Assembly: GCA_039586365.1 (NCBI GenBank)
Contig: JBDHKN010000006.1
Span: forward strand, 7,162-71,161
From: Gemmatimonadota bacterium
GTDB taxonomy: Bacteria > Gemmatimonadota > Gemmatimonadetes > Gemmatimonadales > GWC2-71-9
Direction of reading: 5' to 3'
Length of the DNA stretch: 64,000 nt
In this document: piece by piece, positions 28,201-46,640 of the stretch
How the letters are laid out: each line of letters begins with the position of its first letter
How positions within the stretch are numbered: the first letter of the stretch is position 1
Translations under genes and position numbers: made by a program
The notes under the pieces: model-generated
The model's input: only the letters and a program-made list of their open reading frames with translations
Told to the model about the DNA's origin: nothing
Databases searched by the model: none

Positions 28201-28218
28201 GAGAAAAGTCGCACAAAC

Positions 28219-28234: not shown

Positions 28235-28278
28235 AAAGCGCCAGCGAAGGCAGTGTTCCGTCGCTGAGCGGAGGTGCT

Positions 28279-29016: not shown

Positions 29017-29032
29017 GTGACGATAATCTCAC
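29017..29032. promoter_or_regulatory. Rex-type operator box 3
   Basis: GTGACGATAATCTCAC, GTGA-N8-TCAC. Confidence 0.55.
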
Positions 29033-29048
29033 ATACTCATGAGATATC

Positions 29049-29064
29049 GTGATAAATATCTCGT
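29049..29064. promoter_or_regulatory. Rex-type operator box 4
   Basis: GTGATAAATATCTCGT, 32 nt after box 3. It is embedded in the perfect inverted repeat GAGATAT-N8-ATATCTC (29041-29062). Confidence 0.5.
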
Positions 29065-29115
29065 AATCCTTCGCAATGCACTTGCCTCCGCCGGACCGGG
29101 CTGCCAGATTGAATC

Positions 29116-29131
29116 GTGACAAAAATCTCAC
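29116..29131. promoter_or_regulatory. Rex-type operator box 5
   Basis: GTGACAAAAATCTCAC, 67 nt after box 4. Confidence 0.55.
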
Positions 29132-29147
29132 ACTGAGCAGGTTTACC

Positions 29148-29163
29148 GTGACAAATATCTCAC
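29148..29163. promoter_or_regulatory. Rex-type operator box 6, abutting the -35 of the apr promoter
   Basis: GTGACAAATATCTCAC followed by AAGGCCTTGAC, the same junction as box 1 at the rex promoter. Confidence 0.55.
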
Positions 29164-29169
29164 AAGGCC

Positions 29170-29197
29170 TTGACGGGGGTGTTTCACGAGCTAATAT
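29170..29197 (+). promoter_or_regulatory. Sigma70-like promoter of aprBA (and possibly the downstream cluster)
   Basis: TTGACG (29170-29175), 16 nt, TAATAT (29192-29197). This implies a ~225-nt leader before the aprB ATG at 29430. Confidence 0.6.
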
Positions 29198-29215
29198 GAG
29201 CTTGAGCGTGAAATC

Positions 29216-29231
29216 GTGACAAAAATCTCAC
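29216..29231. promoter_or_regulatory. Rex-type operator box 7, just downstream of the apr -10
   Basis: GTGACAAAAATCTCAC, 18 nt after TAATAT. This is the same geometry as box 2. Confidence 0.55.
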
Positions 29232-29429
29232 AACCCAGGCGCAGTCGCTGCGCACCCGAATTGGACGTCTTTTGGTAGCGTGTCTGACGGGTAGAGCAGC
29301 TGTCGATGTGGTCCGCGCCGACTCTCTGTTGCTTGGCGCCTGTCGGCAGATGATGCCGGTGTGGATTTCCAATTGCAGGTTGGGTCGTATTCCCGGGATG
29401 CCCTATCTGAGTAGAAAGGAAGAAGGAAG

Positions 29430-29897
29430 ATGCCAAGTTTCGTAAACCCGGACAAATGTGACGGATGCAAGGCTCTCGACAAGACGGCCTGTCAGTTCAT
29501 TTGCCCGAACGACCTCATGGTCTTGAACAAGGATACCATGAAGGCCTTCAACCAGGATCCACAGATGTGCTGGGAGTGCTACAGCTGCGTGAAGATCTGT
29601 CCGACGCAGGCGATTGAGGTACGTGGGTACGCTGACTTCGTGCCGCTGGGAGCGAGTGTTACGGCGATGCGCAGTACCGAGGACATCATGTGGACGGTTC
29701 AGTTCCGCAGTAAGGAGATCAAGCCGAAGCGGTTCAAGTTTCCCCACCGTAGGGGTGTTGAGGAAGGCAAAGCACAGCCATTCGATCACTATCCGACGGG
29801 CGACGATGATATCAAGAGCCCGACCTTGATGTGTGAGCCAGCCGGACTGAATACCGATAGAGGTCCGGTGAAAATGGACAAGGTGCCGACGGTGTAG
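29430..29897 (+). CDS. aprB: Adenylylsulfate (APS) reductase beta subunit
   Basis: MPSFVNPDKCDGCKALDKTACQFICPNDLM...CWECYSCVKICPTQAI, two [4Fe-4S] motifs, plus the extended C-terminal tail typical of AprB. RBS GAAAGGAAGAAGGAAG. Confidence 0.95.
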   Translation: MPSFVNPDKCDGCKALDKTACQFICPNDLMVLNKDTMKAFNQDPQMCWECYSCVKICPTQAIEVRGYADFVPLGASVTAMRSTEDIMWTVQFRSKEIKPKRFKFPHRRGVEEGKAQPFDHYPTGDDDIKSPTLMCEPAGLNTDRGPVKMDKVPTV

Positions 29898-29961
29898 TCG
29901 AGCACGGTCATGCAAAGAACTTGTTTCTTCGGCTGAGGAAACTCCAAGGAGAAGAGCGAAA

Positions 29962-31854
29962 ATGCCGAAATTTGAAACCGTAACGGTTGAGACGGACCTG
30001 CTGATCTGCGGCGGCGGGATGGCCGCCTGCGGTGCAGCTGTGGAAGCGGCGTACTGGGCCAAAAGGCATGGGCTGAAGGTCACGGTGGTCGACAAGGCGG
30101 CGATGGACCGCTCTGGGGCTGTCGCGATGGGCCTCTCTGCCATCAACCAGTACGTGGACCTGAACAGCGGTAACAACACGCTGAACGATTACATCGACTA
30201 CGTCCGCAACGACCTCATGGGTATCACGCGTGAGGATCTGGTAGCGAGCATCGCACGTCACGTGGACTCGACTGTCCACCTCTTCGAGAAGTGGGGTCTG
30301 CCCATCTGGAAGGACCAGGACGGCAACTATGTCCACGAGGGTCGTTGGCAGTTGATGATCAATGGTGAGTCGTACAAAGTCATCGTTGCCGAGGCAGCCA
30401 AGAACGCCCTGGCTGAGGCCGGTGGGGAGTACTTCGAGCGCGTCTTCATAACCCACCCACTGATGGACGGTGACAAGTGCGTGGGTGCGATTGGCTTCAG
30501 CGTCAGAGAGAACAAGGTGTATGTCTTCAAGGCCAAGGCCACGTTGGTGGCCATGGGTGGAGCGGTGCACGTGTTCAAGCCGCGCTCCACTGGTGAGGGC
30601 TTCGGCCGTTCCTGGTATCCGCCGTTCAACTCCGGCGCCAGCGCCTTTTTCACAATCTATGCCGGTGCCGAGATGACCTGTCAGGAAGTCCGGTTCATTC
30701 CGGTGCGCTTCAAAGACGCGTACGGACCGGTCGGTGCGTGGTTCCTGCTATTCAAGTCTATCGCAACGAATGCTTACGGCGGCAACTACATGCAGGACAA
30801 CGCCGCAGAGCTCGACAAGTGGGAGCCCTACGGCAAGGTGAAGCCGCGTCCCGCCAACATCCGCAATTGGCTGATGATGTTGGATGTAATGGAAGGCAAG
30901 AGCCCCATCTACATGCAGACAGCCGATGCCATCAAGGCAATTGCCGACAAAGCACCGGACGAGAAGGCCGCTAAGAAGAAGCTGAAGGAGCTGGAAGCAG
31001 AAGCTTGGGAGGACTTCCTCGACATGACGATCTCGCAGGCGATTCTCTGGGCTGCAACGAATGTCGAGCCCGAAAGGAAGCCGTCCGAGATCATGGCTTG
31101 TGATCCCTACTTCATCGGCTCCCACTCCGGTGCGTCCGGGGCTTGGGTCTCTGGACCGGAAGACCTCCAGACTGCGGAGACCAAGGCTGAGTACTTCTGG
31201 GGCTATCCGCACATGACGACGGTCAAAGGGATGTTCGCCGCGGGTGACGCCTCGGGAGCTTCGAGCCACAAGTTCTCATCCGGCTCGCACGCCGAAGGCC
31301 GTATTGCCGCCAAGGGAGCCATCTCCTACATCGTCGACAACAACACCCCACCCAACGTGGACCAGAAGCAGGTCGACGCGTTGACAGAGGAGATCCTGAA
31401 GCCACTCGACACCTTTGAGCAGTTCAAGGGTGCCACGACTGATCCGAACATCAATCCCAACTACATCCGCCCAACGCAGTTCATGTACCGGCTGCAGAAG
31501 ATCATGGACGAGTATTCGGGTGGTGTGTCGAGTCAGTTCAAGACCAATGACAAGCTCCTCGAGAAGGGCATGGAGTTGCTGGGTTACCTCAAGGAAGATG
31601 CTGGTCAACTCGCGGCGGAGAACCTACACGAGCTGATGCGGTGCTGGGAGAACGTCCATCGGATGTTCCAGGCGGACGCGCACATGCGTTCCATTCTCTT
31701 TCGTGAGGAGACTCGTTGGCCAGGTTACTACTTCCGGGCTGACAAGCCAAGCATGGACGACAAGAATTGGCTCGCCTTCTGCAATTGTGTTTACAAGAAG
31801 GACACGGGCGAGTGGGAGATGATCAAGAGGCCTGTCAAGCGCATCACAGCGTAG
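29962..31854 (+). CDS. aprA: Adenylylsulfate (APS) reductase alpha subunit (FAD)
   Basis: 630 aa with N-terminal FAD fold DLLICGGGMAACGAA and AprA-specific blocks (RWQLMINGESYK, FAAGDASGASSHKFSSGSHAEGR, RWPGYYFRAD). Confidence 0.97.
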   Translation: MPKFETVTVETDLLICGGGMAACGAAVEAAYWAKRHGLKVTVVDKAAMDRSGAVAMGLSAINQYVDLNSGNNTLNDYIDYVRNDLMGITREDLVASIARHVDSTVHLFEKWGLPIWKDQDGNYVHEGRWQLMINGESYKVIVAEAAKNALAEAGGEYFERVFITHPLMDGDKCVGAIGFSVRENKVYVFKAKATLVAMGGAVHVFKPRSTGEGFGRSWYPPFNSGASAFFTIYAGAEMTCQEVRFIPVRFKDAYGPVGAWFLLFKSIATNAYGGNYMQDNAAELDKWEPYGKVKPRPANIRNWLMMLDVMEGKSPIYMQTADAIKAIADKAPDEKAAKKKLKELEAEAWEDFLDMTISQAILWAATNVEPERKPSEIMACDPYFIGSHSGASGAWVSGPEDLQTAETKAEYFWGYPHMTTVKGMFAAGDASGASSHKFSSGSHAEGRIAAKGAISYIVDNNTPPNVDQKQVDALTEEILKPLDTFEQFKGATTDPNINPNYIRPTQFMYRLQKIMDEYSGGVSSQFKTNDKLLEKGMELLGYLKEDAGQLAAENLHELMRCWENVHRMFQADAHMRSILFREETRWPGYYFRADKPSMDDKNWLAFCNCVYKKDTGEWEMIKRPVKRITA

Positions 31855-32037
31855 GCTAAATAGATCTGCCAGGATTCTTGGGCGTCGCGGTGCGGCGTCC
31901 GAGGGTCCTGACTCCTGAATCAACTTCGATTTTCCTTCGTGCAAGTCCGAAGGCGTCTTTACAGACTGTGGGGCCGTGAACGGATGATCGCGGTTCCCGG
32001 ACCAATCCGAAGGACCGTTGAGCAACCGAGGAATCCC

Positions 32038-32322
32038 ATGGCAGACACACGTCGAACCTGCCCCCACTGCGGATCCCACCTCAAGAAGTGGTTGGTTCCG
32101 GCTGAGGCGAGCTGGAGCGAGGAGTTCTTCTTTGTCTGTTTCAATGACGACTGCTCCTACTATAAGGACGGCTGGCGCTGGATGAAAGAGAAGTACAACC
32201 AAGAAGCTTCCTATCGATACATGATCAATCCAACTACCGGTGCCGCATCGATGATACCAGTGTGGTCTGACTCCGCAACTCGGGAAATGGTGGTGGAGGA
32301 TGCCGAAGGAGATGAAGCATGA
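32038..32322 (+). CDS. Small zinc-ribbon protein of unknown function (apr/qmo-embedded)
   Basis: ATG 32038, 8 nt after GAGGA, gives 94 aa: MADTRRTCPHCGSHL...FVCFNDDCSYYKDGWRWM... (CxxC ... CxxxxC) with an acidic tail. Its stop overlaps the next start (ATGA at 32319-32322). Confidence 0.6.
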   Translation: MADTRRTCPHCGSHLKKWLVPAEASWSEEFFFVCFNDDCSYYKDGWRWMKEKYNQEASYRYMINPTTGAASMIPVWSDSATREMVVEDAEGDEA

Positions 32323-33209
32323 GCGACGGTCAGGACTCCCCGACCAGGGACCAACGTGAACAGCTGCAAGAGAAGATATTGACGGAATACCCTCGGCTCG
32401 GGCGGGACGACACGTTCCAGTTCTCTTGTCACCCCGGCGTGTCCTGCTTCAACAAGTGCTGCGGCGACGTCAACATATTCCTTTCTCCATATGATGTACT
32501 GCGAATGAAGCGGCGGCTCGGCATGAGTTCGACCGCTTTTCTGGACAAATACGCCCTCATGCCCGTTCAGAAGGACATGAAGACACCCGTCGTCATGCTG
32601 CGTATGAACGAGGACGATACTAAGAGTTGCCCTCACTTGACGGGCGGGGGGTGCGGCATCTACTCGGACCGACCATGGCCTTGTCGCATGTATCCGTTGG
32701 GGTTGGCGGCACAAAAGGATACGTCAGATGGATGGCGGGGTGATCGGTTCTATTTCGTGCTGCAAGAAGAAGGGTGTAAGGGATTCGGGGAAGGGCAGCA
32801 GTGGACGGTGCAGCAGTGGCTCGATGACCAAGGCATCGGCGAGTACGACGAATGGGGAGAAGCGTTCAAGGAACTGGCGCTTCACAAGTTCTTCGAGGAA
32901 GGTGGCGTCCTTTCACCTGAGAAGATGCACATGTTCTTCACTGCGTGCTACGACTTGGACAAGTTCCGGGAGTTCGTGTTCGGTAGCACGCTGTTGCAGC
33001 GGTTCGAGATGGACGAAGACTTCGTTGAAGAAATGCGCTACGAGGATGAAGCGTTGTTGCGGTTCGCGTTCTTGTGGCTGCGATTCAGTCTCTTCGGCGA
33101 GCCAACAATGAAGGTGAAGAAGGGCGTTTTCGAAGCCTTCAAGGGAAGCGTCGACAAGAAGCGGTTGTTCGACAGAGAGTTGGTCAAGACCTCCGAAGGG
33201 GATGCATGA
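32319..33209 (+). CDS. YkgJ-family (UPF0153) cysteine-cluster protein, long form
   Basis: 296 aa. CHPGVSCFNKCCGD and CPHLTGGGCGIYSDRPWPCRMYP match the YkgJ/CxxCxxCC family pattern. Overlaps both neighbours' stop/start codons. Confidence 0.75.
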   Translation: MSDGQDSPTRDQREQLQEKILTEYPRLGRDDTFQFSCHPGVSCFNKCCGDVNIFLSPYDVLRMKRRLGMSSTAFLDKYALMPVQKDMKTPVVMLRMNEDDTKSCPHLTGGGCGIYSDRPWPCRMYPLGLAAQKDTSDGWRGDRFYFVLQEEGCKGFGEGQQWTVQQWLDDQGIGEYDEWGEAFKELALHKFFEEGGVLSPEKMHMFFTACYDLDKFREFVFGSTLLQRFEMDEDFVEEMRYEDEALLRFAFLWLRFSLFGEPTMKVKKGVFEAFKGSVDKKRLFDRELVKTSEGDA

Positions 33210-34474
33210 TGAGCGGGCATGGCAAGAAGGGAAAGATCCTCGTGGTTGGTGGCGGGATCAGCGGTGTGACTGCAGCTGTGGAAGCAGCCGAGGCGGGTTG
33301 CGAGGTGGTGCTGGTGGAGAGGAATCCGTACTTGGGTGGCCGGGTGGCTCAAATGAACCAGTACTTCCCGAAACTCTGTCCGCCCAATTGCGGCTTGGAG
33401 ATAAACTTCCGTCGCATGAAGACCAATCCGCGGATTCAAATTCTAACGACGTCGGAAGTCGAGCAGATCACTGGTGCACCGGGCCACTACAAGGCAACGA
33501 TCCGCCAGCATCCGCGGTTTGTAAACAGTAAATGCACCGGTTGCGGCGCATGCGTAGATGCTTGTCCAGTGGAGCGGCCCGACGCATTCAACTACGGAAT
33601 GGGGTCGACCAAGGCAGTGTACCTGCCCTACGAGATGGCCTACCCGATGCGGTTCGTGATCGACGGCAGCGTGTGCCCCGGAGCAGAGTGCGGCAAGTGC
33701 GTACCGGCGTGTCCCTACGATGCCATCGACCTGGCCATGCAACCGGGGGTAATCGAACTGGAAGTCCAGGCGGTTGTCTGGGCCACCGGCTGGGACCCCT
33801 ACGATGCGAAGAAGATCGAAGGTCTGGGTTTTGGGACATATCCGAACGTGATAACCAATGTCATGATGGAGCGGCTGGCTGCACTCGGTGGTCCCACTGC
33901 AGGAAAGATTCAGCGACCCTCGGATGCCAAGGAAATCGAGTCGGCAGCGTTCGTTCAGTGTGCCGGTTCTCGCGACGAAAACTACCTGAAGCACTGCTCT
34001 GGAGTGTGCTGTCTCGGATCGCTCAAGCAGGCCCGCTACGTTCGCGAACAGTATCCCGAGGCGCAGATCTACATCTTCTACATCGACATCCGCGCACCAG
34101 GTCGGCTCGAGGATTTCTTCGTGGCGACCGAGGCAGACGAGAGACTCACTCTGATCAAAGGCAAAGTCGCTAAGATCGTCGAAGATTCGGCTAGTGGCGA
34201 TCTGCAGGTCGAGGCGGAGGACACGCTCTCGGGTGAGCGGGTGATACAGAAGGTAGATCTCGTTGTGCTGGCGACAGGTTTGGTGCCAAACGGTGCCGGT
34301 GCCACACAGGTCGAGGGTGGCTTGTCGACCGATGAGGACGGGTTCCTGCAGACCGAGCAGTCGCTTGGTGGACTGCTGGCCGCCGGATGTGCTAAGCGCC
34401 CGACGGAAGTGGCAACATGTGTTCGTGATGCCACCGGCGCTGTAGCAAAGGCTTTGCACTTCAGCGGGGAGTAG
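33206..34474 (+). CDS. qmoA: Quinone-interacting membrane-bound oxidoreductase subunit A (HdrA-like flavoprotein)
   Basis: ATGATG at 33206 overlaps the upstream stop. KILVVGGGISGVTAAVEAAEAGCEVVLVERNPYLGGR FAD fold, CTGCGACVDACP ferredoxin motif, and the GCAKRP C-terminal FAD motif. Confidence 0.9.
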   Translation: MMSGHGKKGKILVVGGGISGVTAAVEAAEAGCEVVLVERNPYLGGRVAQMNQYFPKLCPPNCGLEINFRRMKTNPRIQILTTSEVEQITGAPGHYKATIRQHPRFVNSKCTGCGACVDACPVERPDAFNYGMGSTKAVYLPYEMAYPMRFVIDGSVCPGAECGKCVPACPYDAIDLAMQPGVIELEVQAVVWATGWDPYDAKKIEGLGFGTYPNVITNVMMERLAALGGPTAGKIQRPSDAKEIESAAFVQCAGSRDENYLKHCSGVCCLGSLKQARYVREQYPEAQIYIFYIDIRAPGRLEDFFVATEADERLTLIKGKVAKIVEDSASGDLQVEAEDTLSGERVIQKVDLVVLATGLVPNGAGATQVEGGLSTDEDGFLQTEQSLGGLLAAGCAKRPTEVATCVRDATGAVAKALHFSGE

Positions 34475-34478
34475 AGCG

Positions 34479-36722
34479 GTGGAAAAGAAAGTAGCCGTTT
34501 ACATATGCCAAGGTTGCGATATCGGAGCCTCGTTGGATGTCGGGGCGCTGAGCAAGGTTGCCACTGGTGAGTGCAACGCGGCGATTTGCCGTGACCACGA
34601 ATGTCTCTGCTGCGACGAAGGCCGCGAAATGATAAAGCAGGATGTCCGGGAGGGCGCCAACGCTCTGGTGGTCGCTGCCTGCTCACCGCGCTTCATGACT
34701 GACGTCTTCATGTTCGATGGGTGCCGGACGGAACGGGTGAACTTGCGGGAGCACGTGGTCTGGAGCCACGAGCCAAACGACGAAGACACCCAGATGCTCG
34801 CTGACGACTATCTGCGCATGGGGGTAGCGCGGGCAAAGAAAGCGGAACTGCCCGATTCCTTCGAGACAGAGATCAACAAGACTGTTCTCGTGGTAGGGGG
34901 CGGGGCGACGGGCATGACGGCAGCCTTGGACGCAGCTGGTGCTGGCTACGAAGTGGTGCTGGTGGAAAGAGAGGAACAACTGGGTGGCTGGGCCGGCAAG
35001 TTCAAGTATCGGTTCCCGCTGAGTGCACCCTACCGAGAGCTGGAGTTGGTCGATCTCAAGCCGCGCATTGAAGCGGTCGAGAGCAATGAACGGATCAAGG
35101 TCTACAAAGGTGCCACGATAGGGCGCATTGACGGACAGCCCGGACAGTTTGATGTCTCTGTCAAGGCCAATGGCTCGTCAGCCGAGTTCCGTGTCGGCGC
35201 TATCGTGCAGGCAACGGGCTGGAAGCCATACGACGCGTCCAAACTTGGCCACTTGGGATACGGTCGCTGCCCCAACGTGATCACCAACGTTGAGATGGAG
35301 GAGTTGATCGCTGCCGGCAAGATCAACCGTCCCTCCGATGGTAAGCCCGCCCGTCGCATTGCCTTCATCCAGTGCGCGGGATCTCGCGATAAGGAACACT
35401 TGCCGTACTGCTCGGGAGTGTGTTGTCGCGTGACGATCAAGCAAGCGATGGTTGCCCGGCAGTACGACTCGGAGACTGAGGCCTACGTGCTCTACAAGGA
35501 CATCCGCACGCCGGGTCAATACGAGGACTTTTATCGCCGGGCTCAAGAAGACAGCGGCATCTTCTTCACCAAGGCGGAGGTCGTGGGTGTCGAGGAGACG
35601 GGAGAGCACAACCTGCAGGTGGAAGCAAAGGACACGCTGCTCGGTGACAGGATCTTGGTCGAGGCCGACTTGGTCGTCTTGGCCACCGGTATGGTGCCCA
35701 CCGCGGCTGATGGAGAGCTAATCCGCCGCTTCGTAGACGCCAAGGCGGTCGTCGCAAAAGGCGAAGCAGGTGCACAACTGGAAGCGGCCAAGAAGACGGT
35801 GGAGGAACTGCAGCATGTTGAGGGAACCTCGATTCTCAATTTGACCTATCGGCAGGGACCGGACCTCCCGTCTCTCAAATACGACTTCCCCGACTCGCAT
35901 TTCATCTGTTTCCCTTACGAGACACGACGCACCAGTATCTATACGGCCGGCTGCCTGCGCGCACCGAGTGATTCCCTGGTTTCTATGGAGGACGGTGCCG
36001 GTGCTGCGCTCAAGGCAATTCAGAGCCTAGAGTTGGCCGCCAAAGGAGAGGCGGTGCATCCTCGTTGGGGTGATGCTTCCTTTCCCGACTTCTTCCTGCA
36101 GCGGTGTACGCAGTGCAAGCGGTGCACTGAGGAATGCCCCTTTGGAACTCTGAACGAGGATGTCAAGGGCACGCCGCAACCCAATATCACTCGCTGCCGC
36201 CGGTGCGGCATTTGTATGGGCGCGTGTCCCGAACGGATCATCTCGTTCAAAGACTACTCCGTAGAAATCATCTCCTCGATGATCAAATCGGTTGAGATCC
36301 CCGACGAGTTCGAGGAGAAGCCTCGTCTGCTCGGCCTGATCTGTGAGAATGATGCCTATCCCACTCTTGACACAGCCGGCCTCAAGCGAATCAAGCACAG
36401 CGCGTTCATTCGCCTTATACCGGTGCGGTGCCTGGGATCCGTAAACATCGTCTGGATTGCCGACGCTTTGTCGCGTGGCTTTGACGGAATCCTGCTAGTC
36501 GGATGCAAGTCGGGCGACGACTACCAGTGCCATTTCATCCGCGGCAGCGAACTGATGGGCACGCGAAGCGACAACATCCGTGAGAAGCTCACCCAACTGG
36601 CCCTGGAAGAGGAACGCGTGCGGCTGGAGCAACTGCCTATCTCCGAATACGAGAGGCTACCGCAAATCATCAACGAGTTTGCGGAGCAGATTGAAGAGAT
36701 TGGATTGAACCCGTTCAAGTGA
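34479..36722 (+). CDS. qmoB: Qmo subunit B (HdrA-like with C-terminal MvhD-like domain)
   Basis: 747 aa. VLVVGGGATGMTAALDAAGAGYEVVLVERE, two CxxCxxCxxxCP motifs (CTQCKRCTEECP, CRRCGICMGACP), and an MvhD-like end (ILLVGCKSGDDYQCHF). Confidence 0.9.
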   Translation: MEKKVAVYICQGCDIGASLDVGALSKVATGECNAAICRDHECLCCDEGREMIKQDVREGANALVVAACSPRFMTDVFMFDGCRTERVNLREHVVWSHEPNDEDTQMLADDYLRMGVARAKKAELPDSFETEINKTVLVVGGGATGMTAALDAAGAGYEVVLVEREEQLGGWAGKFKYRFPLSAPYRELELVDLKPRIEAVESNERIKVYKGATIGRIDGQPGQFDVSVKANGSSAEFRVGAIVQATGWKPYDASKLGHLGYGRCPNVITNVEMEELIAAGKINRPSDGKPARRIAFIQCAGSRDKEHLPYCSGVCCRVTIKQAMVARQYDSETEAYVLYKDIRTPGQYEDFYRRAQEDSGIFFTKAEVVGVEETGEHNLQVEAKDTLLGDRILVEADLVVLATGMVPTAADGELIRRFVDAKAVVAKGEAGAQLEAAKKTVEELQHVEGTSILNLTYRQGPDLPSLKYDFPDSHFICFPYETRRTSIYTAGCLRAPSDSLVSMEDGAGAALKAIQSLELAAKGEAVHPRWGDASFPDFFLQRCTQCKRCTEECPFGTLNEDVKGTPQPNITRCRRCGICMGACPERIISFKDYSVEIISSMIKSVEIPDEFEEKPRLLGLICENDAYPTLDTAGLKRIKHSAFIRLIPVRCLGSVNIVWIADALSRGFDGILLVGCKSGDDYQCHFIRGSELMGTRSDNIREKLTQLALEEERVRLEQLPISEYERLPQIINEFAEQIEEIGLNPFK

Positions 36723-36739
36723 CCCTAGGAGCGCCGAGG

Positions 36740-36844
36740 ATGTCCGAGGCCCTATTGTTGAAACCGGACCGGAAGTTCGTCGAGGCGATCGTCGCATCAG
36801 GTGGTGACGGATCTGGGCTCAGTGGGGTCTCAGAGACCGTCTAA
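36740..36844 (+). pseudogene. qmoC: 34-codon ORF encoding only the conserved QmoC N-terminus (remnant or leader of split qmoC)
   Basis: MSEALLLKPDRKFVEAIVASGGDG... follows the QmoC N-terminal pattern (xPDxxFVxxxxxxGGD) but then runs out of frame to a TAA that overlaps the next ATG (TAATG at 36842-36846). RBS AGGAG/GAGGA upstream. Confidence 0.5.
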
Positions 36845-37911
36845 TGGCGGACCCTGACATCTGGCTTTGCCACCAGTGCAACGACTGTTCCAAGAAATGC
36901 CCGCGCGGGGCACGACCGGGTGACGTGCTCGCAGCGGTACGCAAACAAGCGGTGCAGTACCATTCGGCTCCGCGGTTTCTTGGCAACTTGGTGAATCGCA
37001 CCAAGTACTTCCCGCTGCTGTTCATGGCTTTGCCGGCAATACTACTGGCGCTGGCACTTACGGTTCGCGAGCCCCTGGAGCAGTTGCTCTCGCTCGGTGA
37101 GCCCCACGAAGCTCTGTACGCTGCGTTTTTCCCCCATTGGCTGCTGATCGGGTTCTACGCGTCCTTCACGGGTTTGGCCTTCATCGGTGCTGTGGTAGGC
37201 GTTGTGCGGTTCTGGCAAGCGATGCGAGTTGCTGACGCAGGTACCGATTCGGGACCACAGACTCTCGGAGTTGTACCCAGTATGGTACGGACCCTCAGAT
37301 CGATCCTCTTCCATGACAAGTTCGCCAAGTGTACGGATCAAGCCTCTCGGCGCTGGACGCATTTGCTGGCTTTCTACGGTTTCGTAGCGTTGTTCGTGGT
37401 CACGATCTGGGCGACCATCGACCTTTACTTAATGCCCGTATTTGGAGTGGATTCGCTCTATCCCTTTGACCTTCTTCACCCTATGAAGCTGCTCGCGAAC
37501 GTAGGTGGTGTGGTGTTGGTGGTCGGGTGTGTGAAGGCGATAACTGACCGCAGGCGTAGCCAATCGTCGGTCACCACGGCATTCGACAATCTCTTTGTTT
37601 GGTTGCTGCTGGGTGTGGCCGTTACGGGGTTCCTGACTGAGGTGTTCCGGTTCGCAATAGAGGGCGCAGGGCAATCAGGACTGACATTCAGCGCCTATTT
37701 CACGTATTTCGTACACCTGGTACTGGTGTTCGGGCTGCTGGTTTACCTGCCCTATTCGAAGTTCGCTCACTTGATATACCGCACGGTTGCTCTGGTTTAC
37801 GCCGAGCATTCTGGACGGAACTTAGACGGTCGCCAACTGCTGCCGGCGGCAGGCGCCCGGCCGCAGATTGAATCTCATGCTGACAAGGCCATCGAGGCCG
37901 CAAACGCGTGA
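36844..37911 (+). CDS. qmoC: Qmo subunit C, N-terminally truncated form (one Fe-S motif plus a heme-b membrane domain)
   Basis: [28 protein letters not shown] followed by ~6 TM helices (HdrE/NarI-like). The frame is also open upstream from 36808 (RIWAQWGLRDRL), which corresponds to canonical QmoC sequence following its first Fe-S motif. Confidence 0.85.
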
Positions 37912-37925
37912 CAGGGGAACAAAAC

Positions 37926-39158
37926 ATGGATCAGCTAGTCAAGCCACATGGCAAAGAAAAGAAGCTCAAGCCCCTTATTCTCAAGGGCAAGGAGCTTGGT
38001 GAGGAACAGAAGAAAGCCGAGTCTCTCAAGAAGATCACCATGACTTCACGCGAGACGGGAGATGCCATCATGATGGGCATCGGCGGGTTCACACCGCTCG
38101 ATGGCTTCATGGGCAGTGCCGACTGGAAGGGTGTCTGCACGGACATGAAGCTGAGCGACGGAACGTTCTGGCCGATTCCCGTGACTGTGTCGGCTACGAA
38201 GCATGACGCCGACTCGATCAAAGAGGGTCAGGAAGTGACCCTGGTCGACGAAGAGACCGGGACCAACATGGCCACAATGAAGGTGACGGAAAAGTACACC
38301 ATCGATAAGCAGTTGGAGTGCAAAGAAGTGTACAGGACGGATGATTCGGAACATCCCGGCGTAGCGATGGTGATGGCGCAGGAGGACTTCAATCTGGGCG
38401 GGCCAATCAAGGTTCTGAGTGAGAGTTACTTCCCAGAGGAGTTCAAAGATGTCTACATGCGGCCCGCTGAGTCGCGGCAGCTGTTCAATGAGAAGGGGTG
38501 GCGGACCGTAGCTGCGTTGCAGTTGCGCAACCCGATGCACCGCTCGCACGAGTACCTGGCCAAGATCGCTTTGGAAGTTCTGGACGGCCTGTTTATCCAT
38601 CAATTGGTCGGCAAACTGAAACCGGGCGACATACCGGCCGATGTTCGAGTCAACTGTATCAACACTTTGGTGGAGAACTACTTCCTGAAGGACTCGGTTG
38701 TTCAGGGCGGTTACCCACTCGACATGCGCTACGCTGGGCCACGCGAGGCCCTACTCCACGCGGTGTTTCGGCAGAACTATGGATGCAGTCACTTGATTGT
38801 GGGCCGTGACCACGCTGGAGTAGGTAGCTACTACGGACCGTTCGACGCGCAAGAGATCTTCCATGAGATACCGGCGGGAGCACTCGAGACCCAACCGCTG
38901 AAGATCGACTGGACCTTCTACTGCTTCAAGTGTCGCGGCATGGCTTCCATGAAGACCTGCCCGCATGGCAAGGATGACCGGCTTCTATTGAGCGGCACGG
39001 TTCTGAGAAAGACTCTCTCGGAGGGTGGAGATCCACCAGATGACTTCAGCCGTCCTGAGGTGTTGGCCATTCTGAAGGACTACTACTCCGGTCTGGAAGA
39101 GAAGGTCGAGATAAAGCTACACCAGTTCGCAACGGGGGATGTGAAGAAGAAGAAGTGA
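37926..39158 (+). CDS. sat: Sulfate adenylyltransferase (ATP sulfurylase)
   Basis: MDQLVKPHG..., [22 protein letters not shown], and a zinc-type CFKC...CPH motif. GTG 37908, which overlaps the qmoC stop, is an alternative start. Confidence 0.95.
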
Positions 39159-39324
39159 AGGATTGGCCGTACGTGAAGACCGTGCCACAGTACACGGCTG
39201 ACCTGTGAGCGTATCGCTCGAGTGAACGGCTTCGCCGCGGGCAACTAACAGCGACATGTAGACCGCAACCAGGCCATGATGAGCGGCCAGATGTGAAACG
39301 TGGGCCCAAGAACGGAGGACGTAG

Positions 39325-39642
39325 ATGGAACAGAAGGAATTCGGTGGTAGGCTGCTAGAAATCGACGAGGACGGATTCATCCAGGATCCCGATGCTTGGG
39401 ATCAGGCCGTTGCCGCCGATCTTGCGAAGACCGAAGGCGTTGACAACATGACGGACGATCACTGGAAGGTCGTCAACTATTTGAGGGAGTACTATCTCGA
39501 GTACAACATGGCTCCCATGATCCGCAAGCTTTGCAAGCAGACGGGCTTCAAGCTGAAGGAGATCTACGATCTGTTTCCCAGCGGCCCGGCGAAGGGTGCC
39601 TGTAAGGTGGCTGGACTTCCCAAGCCTACCGGCTGTGTGTGA
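39325..39642 (+). CDS. dsrC: DsrC (dissimilatory sulfite reductase-associated sulfur carrier)
   Basis: 105 aa. HWKVVNYLREYY and the C-terminal arm CKVAGLPKPTGCV, with both conserved cysteines. Confidence 0.95.
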   Translation: MEQKEFGGRLLEIDEDGFIQDPDAWDQAVAADLAKTEGVDNMTDDHWKVVNYLREYYLEYNMAPMIRKLCKQTGFKLKEIYDLFPSGPAKGACKVAGLPKPTGCV

Positions 39643-39651
39643 TCTGAGTGA

Positions 39652-39694
39652 CTCGCGGGCCGGACTAATGCCGCACGCGTTGTCCGGCCGCGAG
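39652..39694 (+). terminator. GC-rich hairpin immediately after dsrC (possible terminator or processing site)
   Basis: CTCGCGGGCCGGAC ... GTCCGGCCGCGAG, a ~13-bp stem with one bulge and a 16-nt loop, starting 10 nt after the stop. There is no T-run. A second hairpin CAGCCAG-N7-CTGGCTG lies at 39721-39741. Confidence 0.4.
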
Positions 39695-39775
39695 CCGCAA
39701 TAGGAGCAACTTGGATCGCTCAGCCAGCTGGCCGCTGGCTGACACTCACTGGCAACAAAGGAGGAGGGCAGGATC

Positions 39776-40309
39776 TTGTCTCTGGACGTACTGTTGCGCA
39801 ACAGTGAAGATGCCATCCTTTCGAGATGGTTAGACGACGCATTGGCTGTGTATCCCGGAGATTCAGCTGCAATATTCAAGCGCGAGAAGGATCCCTTCGC
39901 CAACCCCATTGGACGCAGCCTCCGGGAAGGAACGCGAGGAATTCTCCGTGCCCTAGTGAACGGAAAGAATGCCGAAGTGGTGCGCCAACATGTGTCCGAG
40001 ATCATGAGGATCGGGGCGGTGCAACAGCATTCGCCCTCCCGGGCAATCGGTTTCCTGTTTTCTCTCAAGGGTGCGATCCGAGCTGAACTGCATGGAGCAG
40101 TCACGCAAGCCGAATATTCGTCCGCGTTGGCGGAACTAGACAACCAGATCGATCAGATTGGTCTGATGGCCTTCGACATCTACGTCCAGTACAGAGAGCA
40201 AGTGTGCGAGCTACGCATCAACGAAGTCAAGCGGCAGGTCTCTCGGATTGTGGACAAGATGAACAGGCGTGTTCCTGATCAGGAATTGGTCCAGATCGAT
40301 CACCCATGA
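39776..40309 (+). CDS. dsrT: DsrT-like protein (RsbRD N-terminal-type domain)
   Basis: 177 aa, TTG start after GGAGGAGGG. LSRWLDDALAVYP...DPFANPIG pattern, positioned directly upstream of dsrMKJOP as described for dsrT. Confidence 0.62.
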   Translation: MSLDVLLRNSEDAILSRWLDDALAVYPGDSAAIFKREKDPFANPIGRSLREGTRGILRALVNGKNAEVVRQHVSEIMRIGAVQQHSPSRAIGFLFSLKGAIRAELHGAVTQAEYSSALAELDNQIDQIGLMAFDIYVQYREQVCELRINEVKRQVSRIVDKMNRRVPDQELVQIDHP

Positions 40310-40349
40310 GAGTGTCGGTGGGAGTGAACGTGAGAAGGAAGGGTTTCTG

Positions 40350-41339
40350 ATGAACATCCTGGTGCCCCTCTTAGGTGTGGGTGGGCTCTTCCTGCTGGGC
40401 TTACTCGGTGCAGCAGCCGGAATGCAGTGGCTTTTCGGTATTCTGTTACCCTACGTTGCCCTGGCTCTCTTTCTCGGCGGTCTGATATACCGGGTCATTA
40501 GTTGGGCGAACATCCCCGTTCCTTTCCGGATCCCGACAACATGTGGGCAGCAGAAGTCACTGCCTTGGATTAGGCAGCAAAAGCTGGACAATCCCAGCAC
40601 CACGCTTGGTGTCGTAGGGAGAATGGCGCTGGAGGTACTCTTCTTCCGCTCGTTGCTGAGGAACACCAAGACCGCATTGGTCGATGGCGACAAGCTTGCC
40701 TATGGAACTGATCTATCGCTTTGGCTCGGAGCCATGGCGATGCACTGGTCGCTGTTGATAGTCCTGATCAGACACCTGCGGTTTTTCACCAATCCGGTCC
40801 CCTCCCTTGTGACATTTATTGAACAGACTGACGGGTTCATGGAGGTGGGTCTGCCGGTCATCTTCGCGACCACAATCGTATTCGCTGTGGCATTGGCATA
40901 TCTGCTATACAGGAGGGTCGCCAATCCCCAGGTGAGATACATCTCACTGGCCGGCGACTACTTCGCGCTGTTTCTGCTGTTGGGAATCGGTATGAGCGGA
41001 TTCTGGCTCAGGCACCTGGCCAAGACAGACGTAACAGCAGTCAAAGAACTCGTCCTGGGATTGACGTATTTCGCGCCCAGCGTCCCAGACGGAATAAGCC
41101 CACTGTTCTTTGGGCACCTCTTTCTGGTGTCTGTGCTGCTGAGCTACTTCCCGGTCAGTAAGCTGCTGCACATGCCCGGTGTGTTTCTGAGCCCGACTCG
41201 GAACATGGCAAACAACAATCGAGCGGTTAGGCACGTGAACCCGTGGGATTACCCCGTCAAAGTGCACAGCTACGAAGAGTATGAGGATGAACTCAGGGAC
41301 AAGATGAAAGCGGCCGGCATCCCGGTCGAGAGGCAATAG
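40350..41339 (+). CDS. dsrM: DsrM (NarI-like diheme-b membrane subunit)
   Basis: ATG 40350 (MNILVPLLGVGG...). Five or more TM helices, a NarI/HdrE-type pattern including LLHMPGVFLSPTRN, followed by dsrK. Confidence 0.9.
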   Translation: MNILVPLLGVGGLFLLGLLGAAAGMQWLFGILLPYVALALFLGGLIYRVISWANIPVPFRIPTTCGQQKSLPWIRQQKLDNPSTTLGVVGRMALEVLFFRSLLRNTKTALVDGDKLAYGTDLSLWLGAMAMHWSLLIVLIRHLRFFTNPVPSLVTFIEQTDGFMEVGLPVIFATTIVFAVALAYLLYRRVANPQVRYISLAGDYFALFLLLGIGMSGFWLRHLAKTDVTAVKELVLGLTYFAPSVPDGISPLFFGHLFLVSVLLSYFPVSKLLHMPGVFLSPTRNMANNNRAVRHVNPWDYPVKVHSYEEYEDELRDKMKAAGIPVERQ

Positions 41340-41343
41340 ATCG

Positions 41344-42987
41344 ATGTCAAAGCCGGACGAATCAGACTATTACAGGCAGGAAGACCTGCTGAAGCTGGAC
41401 TGGCGCCCCCCCAATACGGCGTGGATGGACACTCCTGTGGACATCAGGCCGGGTTCGTTCATATATCCCGGCAAAGCCAAGAATCTCAAGGTTCTGGACT
41501 TGCCGAATCCGAGGGACTGGGCGGTAACGGACGACGACTGGAAGCTTCCTGAGGGCTGGAAGCGGACTGTCTTGGAGGGGATGGCGGAGCGGCTGAAGCG
41601 ATATCGCACGTTCAGGATCTTCATGGACACCTGTGTACGTTGCGGGGCCTGCGCAGATAAGTGCCACTTCTTCATCGGTAGTGGTGACCCAAAGAACATG
41701 CCGGTACTCCGGGCCGAACTGCTGCGGTCCATCTACCGCAAGGATTTCACGGCGCTGGGTAGGGTCTTCGGCAGGCTGGCTGGCGGCCGCGAACTCACCG
41801 AAGACGTGATCAAGGAGTGGTTTTACTACTTCTTCCAGTGTACTGAGTGTAGGCGTTGCTCGGTCTTCTGTCCTTACGGCATCGACACGGCCGAGATCAC
41901 TATGATCGGGAGGGAGCTGCTGGGCCTCCTCGGGGTTTACGTAAACTGGGTGATCGAGCCGGTCGCAAACTGCTACAAGGTGGGAAACCACTTGGGAATA
42001 CAGCCACACGGCCTGGCGGACACCTTGGAGTTCATGGCGGGTGACATCGAAGAAGCGACTGGCATCAAAGTCGACATCCCGATCAACAAGAAGGGCGCTG
42101 AGATCCTTTTCGTCACCCCGTCGGGCGATTTCGTGGCCGATCCTGGAATCTACACGTGTATGTCCTATATGCTGCTGTTCCATGAACTGGGGATCGACTA
42201 CACCTGGAGTACGTACGCTTCTGATGGGGGCAATTTCGGGCTGTTCACATCACATGAGATGATGAAACGCCTCAACGCCAAGATCTACGCCGAGGCCAAG
42301 CGTTTGGGAGTAAAGTGGATCTTGGGAGGCGAGTGCGGCCACATGTGGAGGGTAATCCATCAGTACATGGATACCATGAATGGTCCGGCTGACTTCCTGG
42401 AGGTGCCTCAGTCTCCCATAACAGGAACCGTGTTCGAGAACGCTCGATCCACAAAGATGACGCACCTGATGGAGTTCACTGCTGACCTAATCCGGCATGG
42501 AAAGCTGAAGCTCGATCCCTCACGCAATGACCACATCAGGGTCACCTTCCACGACTCGTGTAACCCGGCCCGAGCCATGGGCATCTTTGAAGAACCACGC
42601 TACGTCTTGCGAAATGTGTGCAACAACTTCTTCGAGATGCCCGAGAACACCATACGGGAGCAAACGTTTTGCTGTGGAGGTGGTGCCGGGCTGGGAACGG
42701 ACGAGAACATGGAGATGCGGTTGCGCGGTGGCCTTCCGAGGGGTAACGCGGTGAGGTACGTGCAAGAGAAGCACGGGGTGAATCAGCTTGCCGCGATGTG
42801 TGCTATCGACCGGGCAACCCTGGTGACCGTGTGTGACTACTGGGCACCTGGAGTCAAGGTGACCGGTATCAGCGAGCTGGTTGCAAATGCCATGATCTTC
42901 CGGGGTGAGAACAAGCGGACGCACAACCTACGTTTGGAACCGATCCCTGGGATGGGAGCTGAGGAGGGGGAACCCAGCGATGACTGA
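41344..42987 (+). CDS. dsrK: DsrK (HdrD-like catalytic Fe-S subunit)
   Basis: 547 aa. CVRCGACADKCHFF, CTECRRCSVFCPYG, and CCG-domain motifs (HDSCN, FCCGGGAG). Confidence 0.93.
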   Translation: MSKPDESDYYRQEDLLKLDWRPPNTAWMDTPVDIRPGSFIYPGKAKNLKVLDLPNPRDWAVTDDDWKLPEGWKRTVLEGMAERLKRYRTFRIFMDTCVRCGACADKCHFFIGSGDPKNMPVLRAELLRSIYRKDFTALGRVFGRLAGGRELTEDVIKEWFYYFFQCTECRRCSVFCPYGIDTAEITMIGRELLGLLGVYVNWVIEPVANCYKVGNHLGIQPHGLADTLEFMAGDIEEATGIKVDIPINKKGAEILFVTPSGDFVADPGIYTCMSYMLLFHELGIDYTWSTYASDGGNFGLFTSHEMMKRLNAKIYAEAKRLGVKWILGGECGHMWRVIHQYMDTMNGPADFLEVPQSPITGTVFENARSTKMTHLMEFTADLIRHGKLKLDPSRNDHIRVTFHDSCNPARAMGIFEEPRYVLRNVCNNFFEMPENTIREQTFCCGGGAGLGTDENMEMRLRGGLPRGNAVRYVQEKHGVNQLAAMCAIDRATLVTVCDYWAPGVKVTGISELVANAMIFRGENKRTHNLRLEPIPGMGAEEGEPSDD

Positions 42988-43360
42988 CAAGGCAAAGGCA
43001 ATTGCCGGTCTGGCTGTCTTCGTCGTTCTGGTGACATATCCCTTCTGGTCCGGGCTGGGATCTGATGCAGAAGCTGGCGCACCCGAGCTGGAGCTGCCCG
43101 AGGACGAAGCCAATTGTGTGGAAGAGACGCAGTTTATGACGGCGAACCACATGGACTTGTTGAACCAATGGCGGAACGCGGTAGTGCGCGACGGCGAAAG
43201 GGAGTACATGTCGACCTCAGGTGAACGGCACGTGATGAGCCTGACCGGTACGTGTATGGGATGTCACAGCAACAGGGACGCGTTTTGCACGCGGTGTCAT
43301 GACTACTCGGACGTGTCACCGGCCTGCTGGGATTGTCATGTCGAGCCGGAAGGGAGCTGA
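42980..43360 (+). CDS. dsrJ: DsrJ (periplasmic triheme cytochrome c)
   Basis: ATG 42980 overlaps the dsrK end. N-terminal anchor helix, the conserved NCVEETQFM..H segment, and three CxxCH motifs (CMGCH, CTRCH, CWDCH). Confidence 0.9.
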   Translation: MTDKAKAIAGLAVFVVLVTYPFWSGLGSDAEAGAPELELPEDEANCVEETQFMTANHMDLLNQWRNAVVRDGEREYMSTSGERHVMSLTGTCMGCHSNRDAFCTRCHDYSDVSPACWDCHVEPEGS

Positions 43361-43363
43361 ACG

Positions 43364-44167
43364 ATGGGGGTGAGCCGACGCGATTTTCTCAAGGAGGCCG
43401 GATCCGCTGCATTGGGCGTGGGCTGTGGCTTGCCGTTCCTGGGCACTGGGTGCAGGGCCGGGAGTGAAGAGCCACATGAAGCTGAATCGTCTGCAAGCCA
43501 ATGGGCGATGGTGGTTGATATCGAGAAGTGCCGCAGCGAGGAAGTGCGGCGAGTCTGTACGGAAGCCTGCAATATCGCGCACAATGTTCCTGCGATCCCT
43601 GATCCGGCAGAAGAGATCAAATGGATCTGGGCAGAGCATTATGAGAACGTTTTTCCCGATCAAGTCCACAACCGCACGGCCGCCTTCATAAGACAGACAC
43701 CGGTGCTCGTGCTCTGCAACCATTGTGACAACCCACCCTGCGTAAGGGTATGTCCCACCCAGGCTACTTGGAAGCGGGAGGCGGATGGAATCGTAATGAT
43801 GGACATGCACCGGTGCATAGGCTGTCGCTATTGCATGGCGGCATGTCCCTACGGATCCAGGAGCTTCAACTGGGGTGACCCGCGTGAGTACATCCCGACG
43901 GACGAGAACGGCCAGTTTCTGTCGGATTACCCGACACGGTCGAAGGGTGTGGTGGAAAAGTGCAACTTCTGCGCAGAGAGATTGCGGGAGGGACTTCGGC
44001 CGGCCTGTGTGGAAGCGGTGAACCAGATACCGGGTGGGGAGGGGGCACTGACGTTCGGGGATCTGAGTGATCCGGAGTCAGAGGTCAGTCGTATGTTGAG
44101 TGAGACTAATACGATCAGCAGAAGAGTAAACCTAGGAACCGGCCCAAATGTGTACTATAAGATCTAA
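43364..44167 (+). CDS. dsrO: DsrO (periplasmic ferredoxin-like, Tat-exported)
   Basis: Twin-arginine signal MGVSRRDFLKEAG. Poly-ferredoxin motifs CNHCDNPPCVRVCP, CIGCRYCMAACP and CNFCAERL. Confidence 0.9.
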   Translation: MGVSRRDFLKEAGSAALGVGCGLPFLGTGCRAGSEEPHEAESSASQWAMVVDIEKCRSEEVRRVCTEACNIAHNVPAIPDPAEEIKWIWAEHYENVFPDQVHNRTAAFIRQTPVLVLCNHCDNPPCVRVCPTQATWKREADGIVMMDMHRCIGCRYCMAACPYGSRSFNWGDPREYIPTDENGQFLSDYPTRSKGVVEKCNFCAERLREGLRPACVEAVNQIPGGEGALTFGDLSDPESEVSRMLSETNTISRRVNLGTGPNVYYKI

Positions 44168-44209
44168 CTTGCTACGCGCGACAATCGGGAGAACCAAGAG
44201 GTAGCCGCT

Positions 44210-45370
44210 ATGCTGGAAACCGCATTCCGCGGGGGTAGGAAGTATTGGATTCTCCTAGGGGTCTGGGGATTGTTGATCCTTGTTGGCTTGGGAGCCTATG
44301 GCAGGCAGTTGGTGGAAGGTCTGCGTATCACCGGTATGAGCCAAGACGTGACTTGGGGATTGTACATCGCGCAATTCACTTTCCTCGTCGGTGTGGCAGC
44401 TTCTGCAGTAATGGTGGTTTTGCCGTACTACCTGCACAACTACAAGGCGTTCGGCAAGATGGTGATTCTGGGCGAGTTTCTCGCCATTTCGGCGGTGCTC
44501 ATGTGCATGTTGTTCGTCTTCGTCGACATGGGTCAGCCCAGGAGGGTGCTCAACGTACTGCTCCACCCTACCCTCAACTCCGTGATGTTCTGGGATTTCC
44601 TGGTCCTTGGAGGCTACGGCATCATAAACTTCGTTGTCGGGGCCGTGACATTTGACGCCGAGCGGAAGGGAACCCCTGCGCCCAGGTGGATCAAGCCGCT
44701 AATCTACCTTTCGATCCCTTGGGCGGTCAGCATCCATACGGTCACGGCCTTTCTCTATTCAGGGCTTGAAGCCAGGTCATTCTGGATGACCGCTATATTG
44801 GCTCCCCGTTTCTTGGCTTCGGCATTTGCGTCGGGCCCCAGCCTGTTGATCGTGCTGGCTCTGATTCTGCGGAGGTTCACCAAGTTCGACCCCGGCAAGG
44901 AAGCTATTCAGAAGCTGGCTCTGATAGTCACCTATGCGATGGTGATTAACGTCTTCTTCGTAGGCGTCGAGCTGTTTTCCGGCCTATACAGTGACATGCC
45001 GCACCATGTGCATGCGTTCGAGTATCTGTTCGTTGGCCTGCACGGGCATGCCGCTCTCACTCCTTGGGTGTGGGTTGGCGAGGTCTTCACGGTGTGTTGT
45101 GTTGTGGGTCTGTTGATCCCCAAGGTACGTAGGCAGGAGAAGTACTTGGCAGTGCTTGCCGTTGGGGTGATCACCGCCATTTGGATCGAGAAGGGTGTCG
45201 CAATGGTGGTGACTGGCTTCATTCCGTCGCCACTGGGCAGGATAACGGAGTATGCGCCAACAGCGCCGGAGATCGCAATCACGATCGGTGTCTACGCGTT
45301 GGGGTTCTTCGTGCTTACAGTGCTTTACAAGATGGTTGTGAGTGTTAGAGAACAGTTGGATCTAGCTTGA
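44210..45370 (+). CDS. dsrP: DsrP (NrfD/PsrC-like integral membrane subunit)
   Basis: 386 aa, ~10 TM helices, with an NrfD-like N-terminal pattern ([15 protein letters not shown]). Follows dsrO. Confidence 0.9.
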
Positions 45371-45419
45371 AAGAAGGAGCGGTAACAACGCCATCATTCC
45401 AAGACCAAAGGAGATGACG

Positions 45420-46640
45420 ATGGCAGACTTAGGTAGCAACGGTACGCCGTTACTGGACGAACTGGAGAAAGGGCCGTGGCCCAGTTTTGTCACGGAAATC
45501 AAGCAGACTGCCGGGTTTAGCAAACCAGCCGAGCAGTTGTTGGCGTTGCTGGAACGGTCCTACAGAGAGAGAATTGGTCACTGGAAGCACGGCGGTATTG
45601 TGGGTGTGATGGGATACGGTGGAGGCGTGATCGGCCGCTACAACGATCTACCTGAGGAATATCCGGAGATCGCCCATTTCCACACTCTGCGGGTCAACAT
45701 GCCTACCGGTTGGTTCTACACGTCCGAGGCGTTGAGAACGATCTGTGACATTTGGGAGAGACACGGCTCCGGATTGACAAACATGCATGGGTCCACGGGT
45801 GACATCATCTTGTTGGGCACCACGACGGACGAGCTCGAGCCGACTTTTGCCGAGTTGACTGCCAACAGTTTCGACCTGGGTGGATCCGGTTCCGATATGC
45901 GCACGCCTAGCGCGTGTGTGGGTCCTGCCCGGTGCGAATGGGCTTGCTACGACACGCTACACCTGTGCAATGACCTTACACAACATTTCCAAGACGAGCT
46001 GCACCGCCCAGCATTTCCCTACAAGTTCAAGTTCAAGTGTGCGGGCTGTCCGAACGACTGTGTGGCGTCAGTAGCCAGAGCAGATATGTCGATTATCGGC
46101 ACCTGGCGGGACGAGATCCAGATCGATCAGGCAGAGGTGAAAGCTGCGGCCAAGACGGGACTCGACATCCAGAAGGATGTCTGCTTCCTTTGCCCCACCA
46201 AATGCATCGAGTGGGATGGCAAGAAGCTGGAGATCGACGACGAGAACTGCGTGAAGTGCATGCACTGTATCAACGTTATGCCCAAGGCGTTGCGCCCCGG
46301 CAAAGATCGTGGGGCGACGATTCTGCTCGGTGCCAAAGCACCGATTGTCGAAGGTGCATTGTTATCCTCGGTGTTGGTCCCGTTCATGAAACTCGAACCA
46401 CCGTATGATGAGCTCAAGGACCTCGTGGAGAGGATTTGGGATTTCTGGGGCGAGCACGGCAAGAACCGAGAGCGTGTGGGAGAGCTGATGCAGCGTGTGG
46501 GGCTGGGGAACTTCTTGGAGGCGATCGAGGTGGAGCCGATTCCGGAAATGATCGCGTATCCGCGAGAGAACCCATACGTATTCTACGAAGAGTACTATGA
46601 AGAAGGCGAAGAAGGGGAAGAAGCGGAGGAGGACGAGTAA
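45420..46640 (+). CDS. dsrA: Dissimilatory sulfite reductase alpha subunit, reductive bacterial-type sequence features
   Basis: [89 protein letters not shown] 45420, 6 nt after AAGGAG, is preferred to 45414. Unusual poly-Glu tail. Confidence 0.97.

Follow-up and report, generated by a model that had tools for sequence, protein, structure and literature searches.

QmoC is the membrane subunit that connects QmoAB and APS reductase with the quinone pool. Two parts are fused in it, an Fe-S domain resembling HdrC and a di-heme cytochrome b resembling HdrE, and deletion of qmoABC abolishes growth of D. vulgaris on sulfate (PMC3333476). QmoAB also occurs without QmoC, in Gram-positive sulfate reducers and some sulfur oxidisers, which have HdrBC, HdrD or AprM instead (PMC3333476, PMC10504309); organisms without QmoC are thought to lack membrane coupling and to use HdrBC or HdrD (PMC10504309). 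DsrAB-Sat-AprAB-QmoABC clusters in marine and estuarine Gemmatimonadota have already been published (PMC11316326).

The locus described here lies in a window of 64,000 nucleotides (the whole stretch of DNA that was analysed), which comes from a Gemmatimonadota-like sediment bacterium. It carries a sulfate-respiration island with the gene order aprBA-qmoABC-sat-dsrC-dsrMKJOP-dsrAB, of which qmoC is the broken member; the neighbouring pathway genes are intact (13/13). The genes around qmoC are:

29430-29897, plus strand: aprB, intact; the exact protein is named adenylylsulfate reductase subunit B by JGI/NCBI
29962-31854, plus strand: aprA, intact; the exact protein is named adenylylsulfate reductase subunit A by JGI/NCBI
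31939-32322: small ORF of the Ogr_Delta zinc-finger type, between aprA and qmoA
32319-33209: small ORF with CxxCxxCC (YkgJ-like), between aprA and qmoA
33209-34474, plus strand: qmoA, intact; the qmoAB products have FAD/NAD-binding, Fer4 and FlpD (MvhD-like) Pfam domains
34479-36722, plus strand: qmoB, intact; named QmoB by JGI
37926-39158, plus strand: sat, intact; Pfam ATP-sulfurylase with PUA_2
39325-39642, plus strand: dsrC, intact; Pfam DsrC
40350-45370, plus strand: dsrMKJOP, intact; Pfam on the L003 orthologues
45414-47779, plus strand: dsrAB, intact; Pfam on the window proteins

Two related lineages with an intact QmoC of 418 aa were used as references, namely L003/L004/L005 (about 91% nucleotide identity) and L166. 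The protein of the former, P0122, is present on three independent assemblies (L003 from JGI, L004 from ENA and L005 from Logan), L166 is a Logan contig, and the AprA deposited for the MAG 'Gemmatimonas sp. SG8_17' is the one encoded on L003. The order aprB-aprA-(two small ORFs)-qmoA-qmoB-qmoC-sat-dsrC is identical in L003 and L004, which places the window gene in the synteny expected of qmoC. The aprBA genes are collinear with those of L003 (dN/dS 0.03), qmoAB shows no frameshift against L003, and the sole intragenic indel in dsrMKJOP and dsrAB is one of 3 nt in dsrK. The Ogr_Delta and CxxCxxCC small genes are conserved as well, both being found at the same aprA/qmoA position in L003 and L004, and an RsbRD_N gene lies between dsrC and dsrMKJOP. 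On the 3' side of dsrAB, the island is followed by a 558-aa protein (48148-49824) with Pyr_redox_2, Fer4_20 and C-terminal Fer4_21 domains (DsrL/GltD-like), after which comes a CobB/CobQ-like amidase (DsrN-like). Two tetrapyrrole (heme/siroheme-type) biosynthesis fusions also adjoin the dsr genes: a 748-aa ORF (55098-57344) combining a ferrochelatase domain with a glutamyl-tRNA reductase N-terminal domain, and a 523-aa ORF (57725-59296) in which a tetrapyrrole methylase is fused to HemD.

In the window, qmoC is divided over two ORFs of 34 codons (36740-36844) and 355 codons (36844-37911), joined by TAATG. Its parts are:

36740-36844, plus strand: 34-codon remnant ORF, MSEALLLKPDRKFVEAIVASGGDG followed by the out-of-frame tail SGLSGVSETV and a stop
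36800-36819, plus strand: deletion junction from alignments and blastn, GGTGAC-G/GATCTGG, with the joint (slash) between 36809 and 36810
36811-36843, plus strand: orphaned native-frame codons IWAQWGLRDRL, residues 53-63, frame open
36844-37911, plus strand: 355-aa ORF, native QmoC residues 64-418, with the second Cys motif and the membrane cytochrome-b-like domain
36868-36903, plus strand: second Cys motif, inside the 355-aa ORF

An earlier note on this DNA had described the 34-codon ORF at 36740, a different open frame and the TAATG, and translation bears out all of these sequence statements. Codons 1-23 of the remnant (36740-36808) are native QmoC residues 1-23, its TAA lies at 36842-36844, and its ATG and the upstream TAGGAGCGCCGAGG match those of intact relatives. 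The ORF is annotated as a 'hypothetical protein' on the source contig, and it is present on one contig only. The native frame opens again after a TGA at 36805-36807. From 36808 to 36844 this frame is free of ATG, GTG and TTG, which leaves the WAQWGL stretch without a canonical start, and the largest conventional product therefore begins at native Met64.

That the 355-aa ORF is QmoC is clear from its relatives. The exact protein is present in the public protein collection, from a single source contig of 201,401 nt, under the JGI name QmoC (E = 1e-236 to itself); homologues at E <= 1e-10 number 1742, many of them named QmoC, and the 90%-identity cluster of the protein also includes the intact P0122. 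Over residues 53-418, the window QmoC and the 418-aa P0122 are 92.6% identical. The histidines H161, H220, H236, H275, H354 and H372 are kept, which points to an HdrE-like cytochrome b domain preserved at the level of sequence. Of the two CX2CX2CX3C motifs of the HdrC-like domain, only the second is present, and the Fer4 Pfam scores of the 355-aa ORF fall under the family cut-offs. In place of an uninterrupted frame of about 390-450 aa, a frameshifting deletion has split the gene into its 34 and 355 codons, and tblastn of the window recovered neither a relocated copy of the missing segment nor a second qmoC; a gene that could stand in for qmoC is likewise absent from the window.

DNA alignment with the two intact lineages showed that exactly 85 nt are absent from the window (alignment columns 122-206), and the segment has equal length in both references. 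The lost codons are residues 24-52, DLKKCFQCATCSVACEVSTGRTPFPRKEM, and hold the entire first CX2CX2CX3C motif with all four of its cysteines; 85 not being divisible by 3, the loss also shifts the frame. The earlier proposal of a deleted first Fe-S motif with an out-of-frame junction is thereby confirmed against close relatives, and the QmoC N-terminus given there fits an alignment of 24 sequences, in which C28, C31, C34 and C38 are present in all 23 others. Nor is the missing block a chance difference in length, given its equal length in both related lineages and the presence of both motifs in 158 of 160 more distant loci. The sequence spanning the joint is GACGGATCTGG (longer form GGTGACGGATCTGGGC), where intact sequence reads GATCTGAAGAAGTGC...GGAGATGATCTGG and includes GATCTGAAGAAGTGCTTCCAG; one example of the strain's own SNPs is GCG at codon 16 (CGTCTAATG).

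L003 carries a 12-nt imperfect direct repeat on both sides of the lost piece (GGTGACGATCTG / GGAGATGATCTG), identical at 10 of 12 positions and spaced by 86 nt. The window keeps GGTGAC-G-GATCTG, that is, one hybrid copy of the repeat and one extra G, and because of this extra G the loss amounts to 85 nt and not to the 86 nt of a clean event. The two blastn HSPs between the window and L003 overlap on GATCTG. Other origins of the joint were considered and set aside. A hairpin-promoted deletion was rejected, as the lost segment folds no better than shuffled sequences (z = -0.19); religation at a GATC site, for which GACGATCTGG would be the expected product, was dropped by inspection, as was programmed frameshifting at the joint, the slippery heptamer being absent. 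A search for k-mers of 13 nt or longer common to the lost segment and the rest of the window, of the kind that could tangle an assembly graph, returned none.

The occurrence of the lesion was assessed in 160 related loci, of which metagenomes and GTDB species representatives supplied 80 each; most belong to MAGs of Gemmatimonadota, Planctomycetota and Acidobacteriota. An uninterrupted N-terminus with both motifs was found in 158 of them. The two exceptions, L129 and L131, have 1-nt frameshifts downstream of motif 1 that are probably sequencing errors; these fall on the DPDIW codons, immediately ahead of the second Cys motif (L129 at ~3200-3210, L131 at ~3195-3205), both in 'MFD' Gemmatimonadales MAGs. 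Several independent genomes lacking motif 1 were thus not encountered among the 160 loci. The earlier note had suggested looking for the same junction in related genomes; a degenerate exact pattern gave 0 matches in genome and metagenome contig collections that do not include the source contig, so that the junction has no independent confirmation in either collection.

Short proteins named QmoC do occur in the databases. Among the 120 best matches, eight JGI entries (P0064, P0066, P0072, P0074, P0087, P0108, P0113 and P0117) are only 347-375 aa long, start with M[IL]WAQWGL and have no Fer4 Pfam domains. For the two entries that were checked (L001 3848-5044 and L089 3001-4233), the DNA holds a continuous full-length ORF, and the gene caller had started at an internal ATG, which is preceded by the SD-like AAGGAR within the conserved Arg-Lys-Glu-Met codons. 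These two are start-calling errors, caused by the resemblance of AAGGAR and the ATG of R-K-E-M to a ribosome-binding site and start. A further entry, P0121, shares its first Met with the window ORF and is truncated by the edge of its own contig. The idea that the short entries form a single-motif clade was accordingly rejected for L001 and L089, with their full ORFs, and for P0121, with its contig edge.

The remainder of the gene bears no trace of decay. For 19 kb (26739-45751) the window runs collinear with L003, to which it is 90-92% identical in nucleotides, and as all other indels between them are intergenic or 3 nt long, the gap in qmoC is the sole disruptive difference in this stretch. 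The remaining 355 codons have a dN/dS of 0.095 against L003, within the 0.03-0.24 of neighbouring genes, and codon changes on the window branch are 10 non-synonymous versus 28 synonymous in qmoC, similar to the 11 versus 29 in sat. All columns that are invariant in the 23 homologues of the alignment of 24 sequences, including the six histidines, are kept by the 355-aa ORF. Even in the orphaned codons 1-23 and 53-63, most of the differences from relatives are synonymous when read in the old frame; for residues 53-63, comparison with L003 and L166 gave four synonymous changes and one conservative change (K to R). Relaxed selection on the 355 codons thus left no signal in dN/dS, branch changes or invariant residues. 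As the rest of the gene is undecayed, the lesion is either very recent or was never in the cell, and by this measure a recent deletion and an artefact look the same. The intact neighbouring genes likewise mean that a real knock-out of this core respiratory gene would be extremely recent, or tolerated. The lesion occurs in one genome and is either an isolated, very recent event or a product of misassembly; it does not amount to a new kind of enzyme. Of the three readings offered earlier (decay, an assembly indel and a remodelled Qmo), the first two survive and the third is not supported, and decay itself holds only as one recent hit, as constraint on the rest of the gene is not relaxed.

The reading that we prefer, at a probability of roughly 0.5, is that an ordinary qmoC in one genome suffered a real, repeat-associated and very recent deletion of 85 bp. 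In its favour are the intact segments of equal length in two lineages, the bracketing repeat, and the otherwise clean 19 kb without N; with no other disruptive indel in 19 kb and zero N, the assembly appears generally clean. Against it stand the undecayed gene, the intact neighbours, the junction unseen elsewhere and a joint that is not the clean 86-nt product of slippage. The sequence comparisons establish the gap itself, with its size, its repeat, its uniqueness and the undecayed remainder of the gene; we infer a biological origin of the joint, as opposed to one in assembly, and a loss of function. The short direct repeat around the lost segment, of a type on which slippage classically acts, points to replication slippage or illegitimate recombination between the GGTGACGATCTG and GGAGATGATCTG copies, in which an extra G would have been left at the joint. 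Such an event would have removed residues 24-52 with the four motif-1 cysteines and shifted the frame, and translation from the native start would then stop after 34 codons. Ribosomes might at best re-start at the overlapping ATG, giving a putative protein without residues 1-63.

Residues 10-116 of the intact orthologue, with both motifs, align to HdrC of solved structures (8RVV, 5ODC; E = 7e-21). In the two-[4Fe-4S] ferredoxin fold, one motif supplies three of the cysteines of a cluster and the other motif supplies the fourth. Without motif 1, only three Cys ligands would therefore be left for one cluster and a single one for its partner, so that such a product should have no fully ligated cluster and its Fe-S relay would be lost. 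Electron transfer from the hemes b to QmoB/A would then most probably be interrupted, which would make this a loss-of-function allele. A second, about 45%-identical qmoB-qmoC-like pair was observed in several related Gemmatimonadota MAGs (L143 28-7140, and also in L136 and L140), with genes for a Fer4_11 (DsrO-like) and an NrfD (DsrP-like) protein downstream of it; this pair could be a paralogous Qmo module that gives redundancy.

Somewhat short of even odds, in our estimate, and just as much in keeping with the data, is that the joint arose in assembly or scaffolding and that the true gene is an intact qmoC of 418 aa. Contig ends may have been joined over about 85 unassembled bases on a short spurious overlap, GATCTG or the 12-nt repeat, or a minority or chimeric path may have been chosen in a strain-mixed assembly graph. 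An artefact predicts that the rest of the gene and its neighbours look functional, as they do, and the junction falls exactly on a short repeat. Next to the site, moreover, lies a block in which four co-occurring lineages have identical sequence. L002, an independent contig from JGI that belongs to a sister strain, starts 23 nt downstream of the junction; positions 1-12 of this contig equal window positions 36833-36844, the left edge of the four-lineage block. As L002 breaks just there, assemblies of this lineage seem to fragment at the site. All relatives are MAGs, recovered from sediments in which several related strains occur, the frameshifts in qmoC of L129 and L131 are likely sequencing artefacts in other MAGs, and no independent assembly shows the junction. 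Certain scaffolders will fuse the ends of contigs that overlap by as little as 6 nt. De Bruijn assemblers normally make no joins on similarity of 6-12 nt, and the extra G is unlike a simple overlap merge on the repeat. The 64 kb have zero Ns and no other anomalies, and the source contig is long (201 kb), all of which speaks against an artefact.

The earlier note had also raised a functionally remodelled Qmo. Under such a reading the deletion would be real, and a single-motif QmoC of 355 aa, made by termination-reinitiation and working, for instance, with one cluster or as a cytochrome-b-only anchor, would be retained by selection. We consider this improbable. A stop/start overlap is present, the remnant TAA sharing its last base with the ATG at 36844 (TAATG at 36842-36846), the upstream ORF has its native ribosome-binding region, and the 355 codons are under purifying selection with all invariant residues kept. 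The same selection signal, however, is predicted by a recent lesion or an artefact. The overlap noted earlier is thus real, but its interpretation as a coupling device did not hold: in the native frame, TAATG is the CTA-ATG of Leu63-Met64, which is ancestral, CTAATG being found in the homologous stretch of L002 as well (L003 and L166 have CTGATG). In the equivalent shifted frame of neighbouring genes, 24 of 257 out-of-frame stops (9%) overlap an in-frame ATG or GTG, so the overlap alone is compatible with chance, and a conserved or selected coupling is not indicated. SD-like pairing upstream of 36844 (-5.9 kcal/mol) is near the bottom of the range of the cluster genes. Reinitiation at 36844 is mechanistically possible from the sequence, and nothing suggests that the arrangement was selected. 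The synonymous bias that the orphaned segments retain in the old frame, the three-Cys and one-Cys clusters that loss of motif 1 would leave, and the absence of such a form from the other lineages (160 loci) all argue against remodelling. More doubtful still is that a natural strain of sulfate-respiring Gemmatimonadota, with a real deletion, expresses, by reinitiation at TAATG, a motif-1-less QmoC that still feeds APS reductase; were this true, one HdrC-type cluster, or none, would be enough for Qmo function. Finally, a single-motif or two-gene QmoC as the normal state of a described clade, to which the eight short entries among the 120 best matches might seem to point, has next to no probability, since both motifs are encoded in one frame at 158 of the 160 loci, the two checked short entries encode full ORFs and P0121 is cut by a contig end.

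In itself, the finding has little biological weight: it concerns a well-known gene, of which a single metagenome-derived genome has a damaged copy. It bears rather on how such genomes are read: calling sulfate respiration from the presence of 'QmoC' in the source genome would be over-confident unless the site is verified, and the two checked short 'QmoC' entries (of eight) show that the R-K-E-M codons also give rise to start-calling errors in databases. A conserved block coding for Fe-S motifs is, moreover, a spot where strain-mixed assemblies break. If the preferred deletion is real, it would constitute a natural qmoC knock-out in an uncultured lineage, in which a replacement might be sought, for example in a second Qmo-like operon such as that of related MAGs.

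Compared with QmoC type I of Desulfovibrio, Chlorobaculum, Archaeoglobus and Gemmatimonadota MAGs, the window copy is alike in its position after qmoA-qmoB and keeps the second Cys motif, the cytochrome-b-like domain and all invariant residues, but it is without residues 24-52, its frame is broken, and its largest translatable product is without residues 1-63. With regard to HdrC (5ODC, 8RVV), only the motif-2 half of the HdrC-like domain is kept, and the window QmoC is fused to a membrane domain, whereas HdrC has none. If the lesion is real, the cell would resemble the QmoC-less systems in having QmoAB without a working membrane partner. Those systems, however, have no qmoC and an adjacent substitute, whereas the window has a damaged qmoC and no hdrBC or hdrD after qmoB. 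With pseudogene deletions by slippage at short direct repeats, the locus shares the 12-nt bracketing repeat (10/12) of which one hybrid copy is left, but the extra G and the loss of 85 instead of 86 nt set it apart from the textbook clean product. The window qmoC is a damaged member of a known family.
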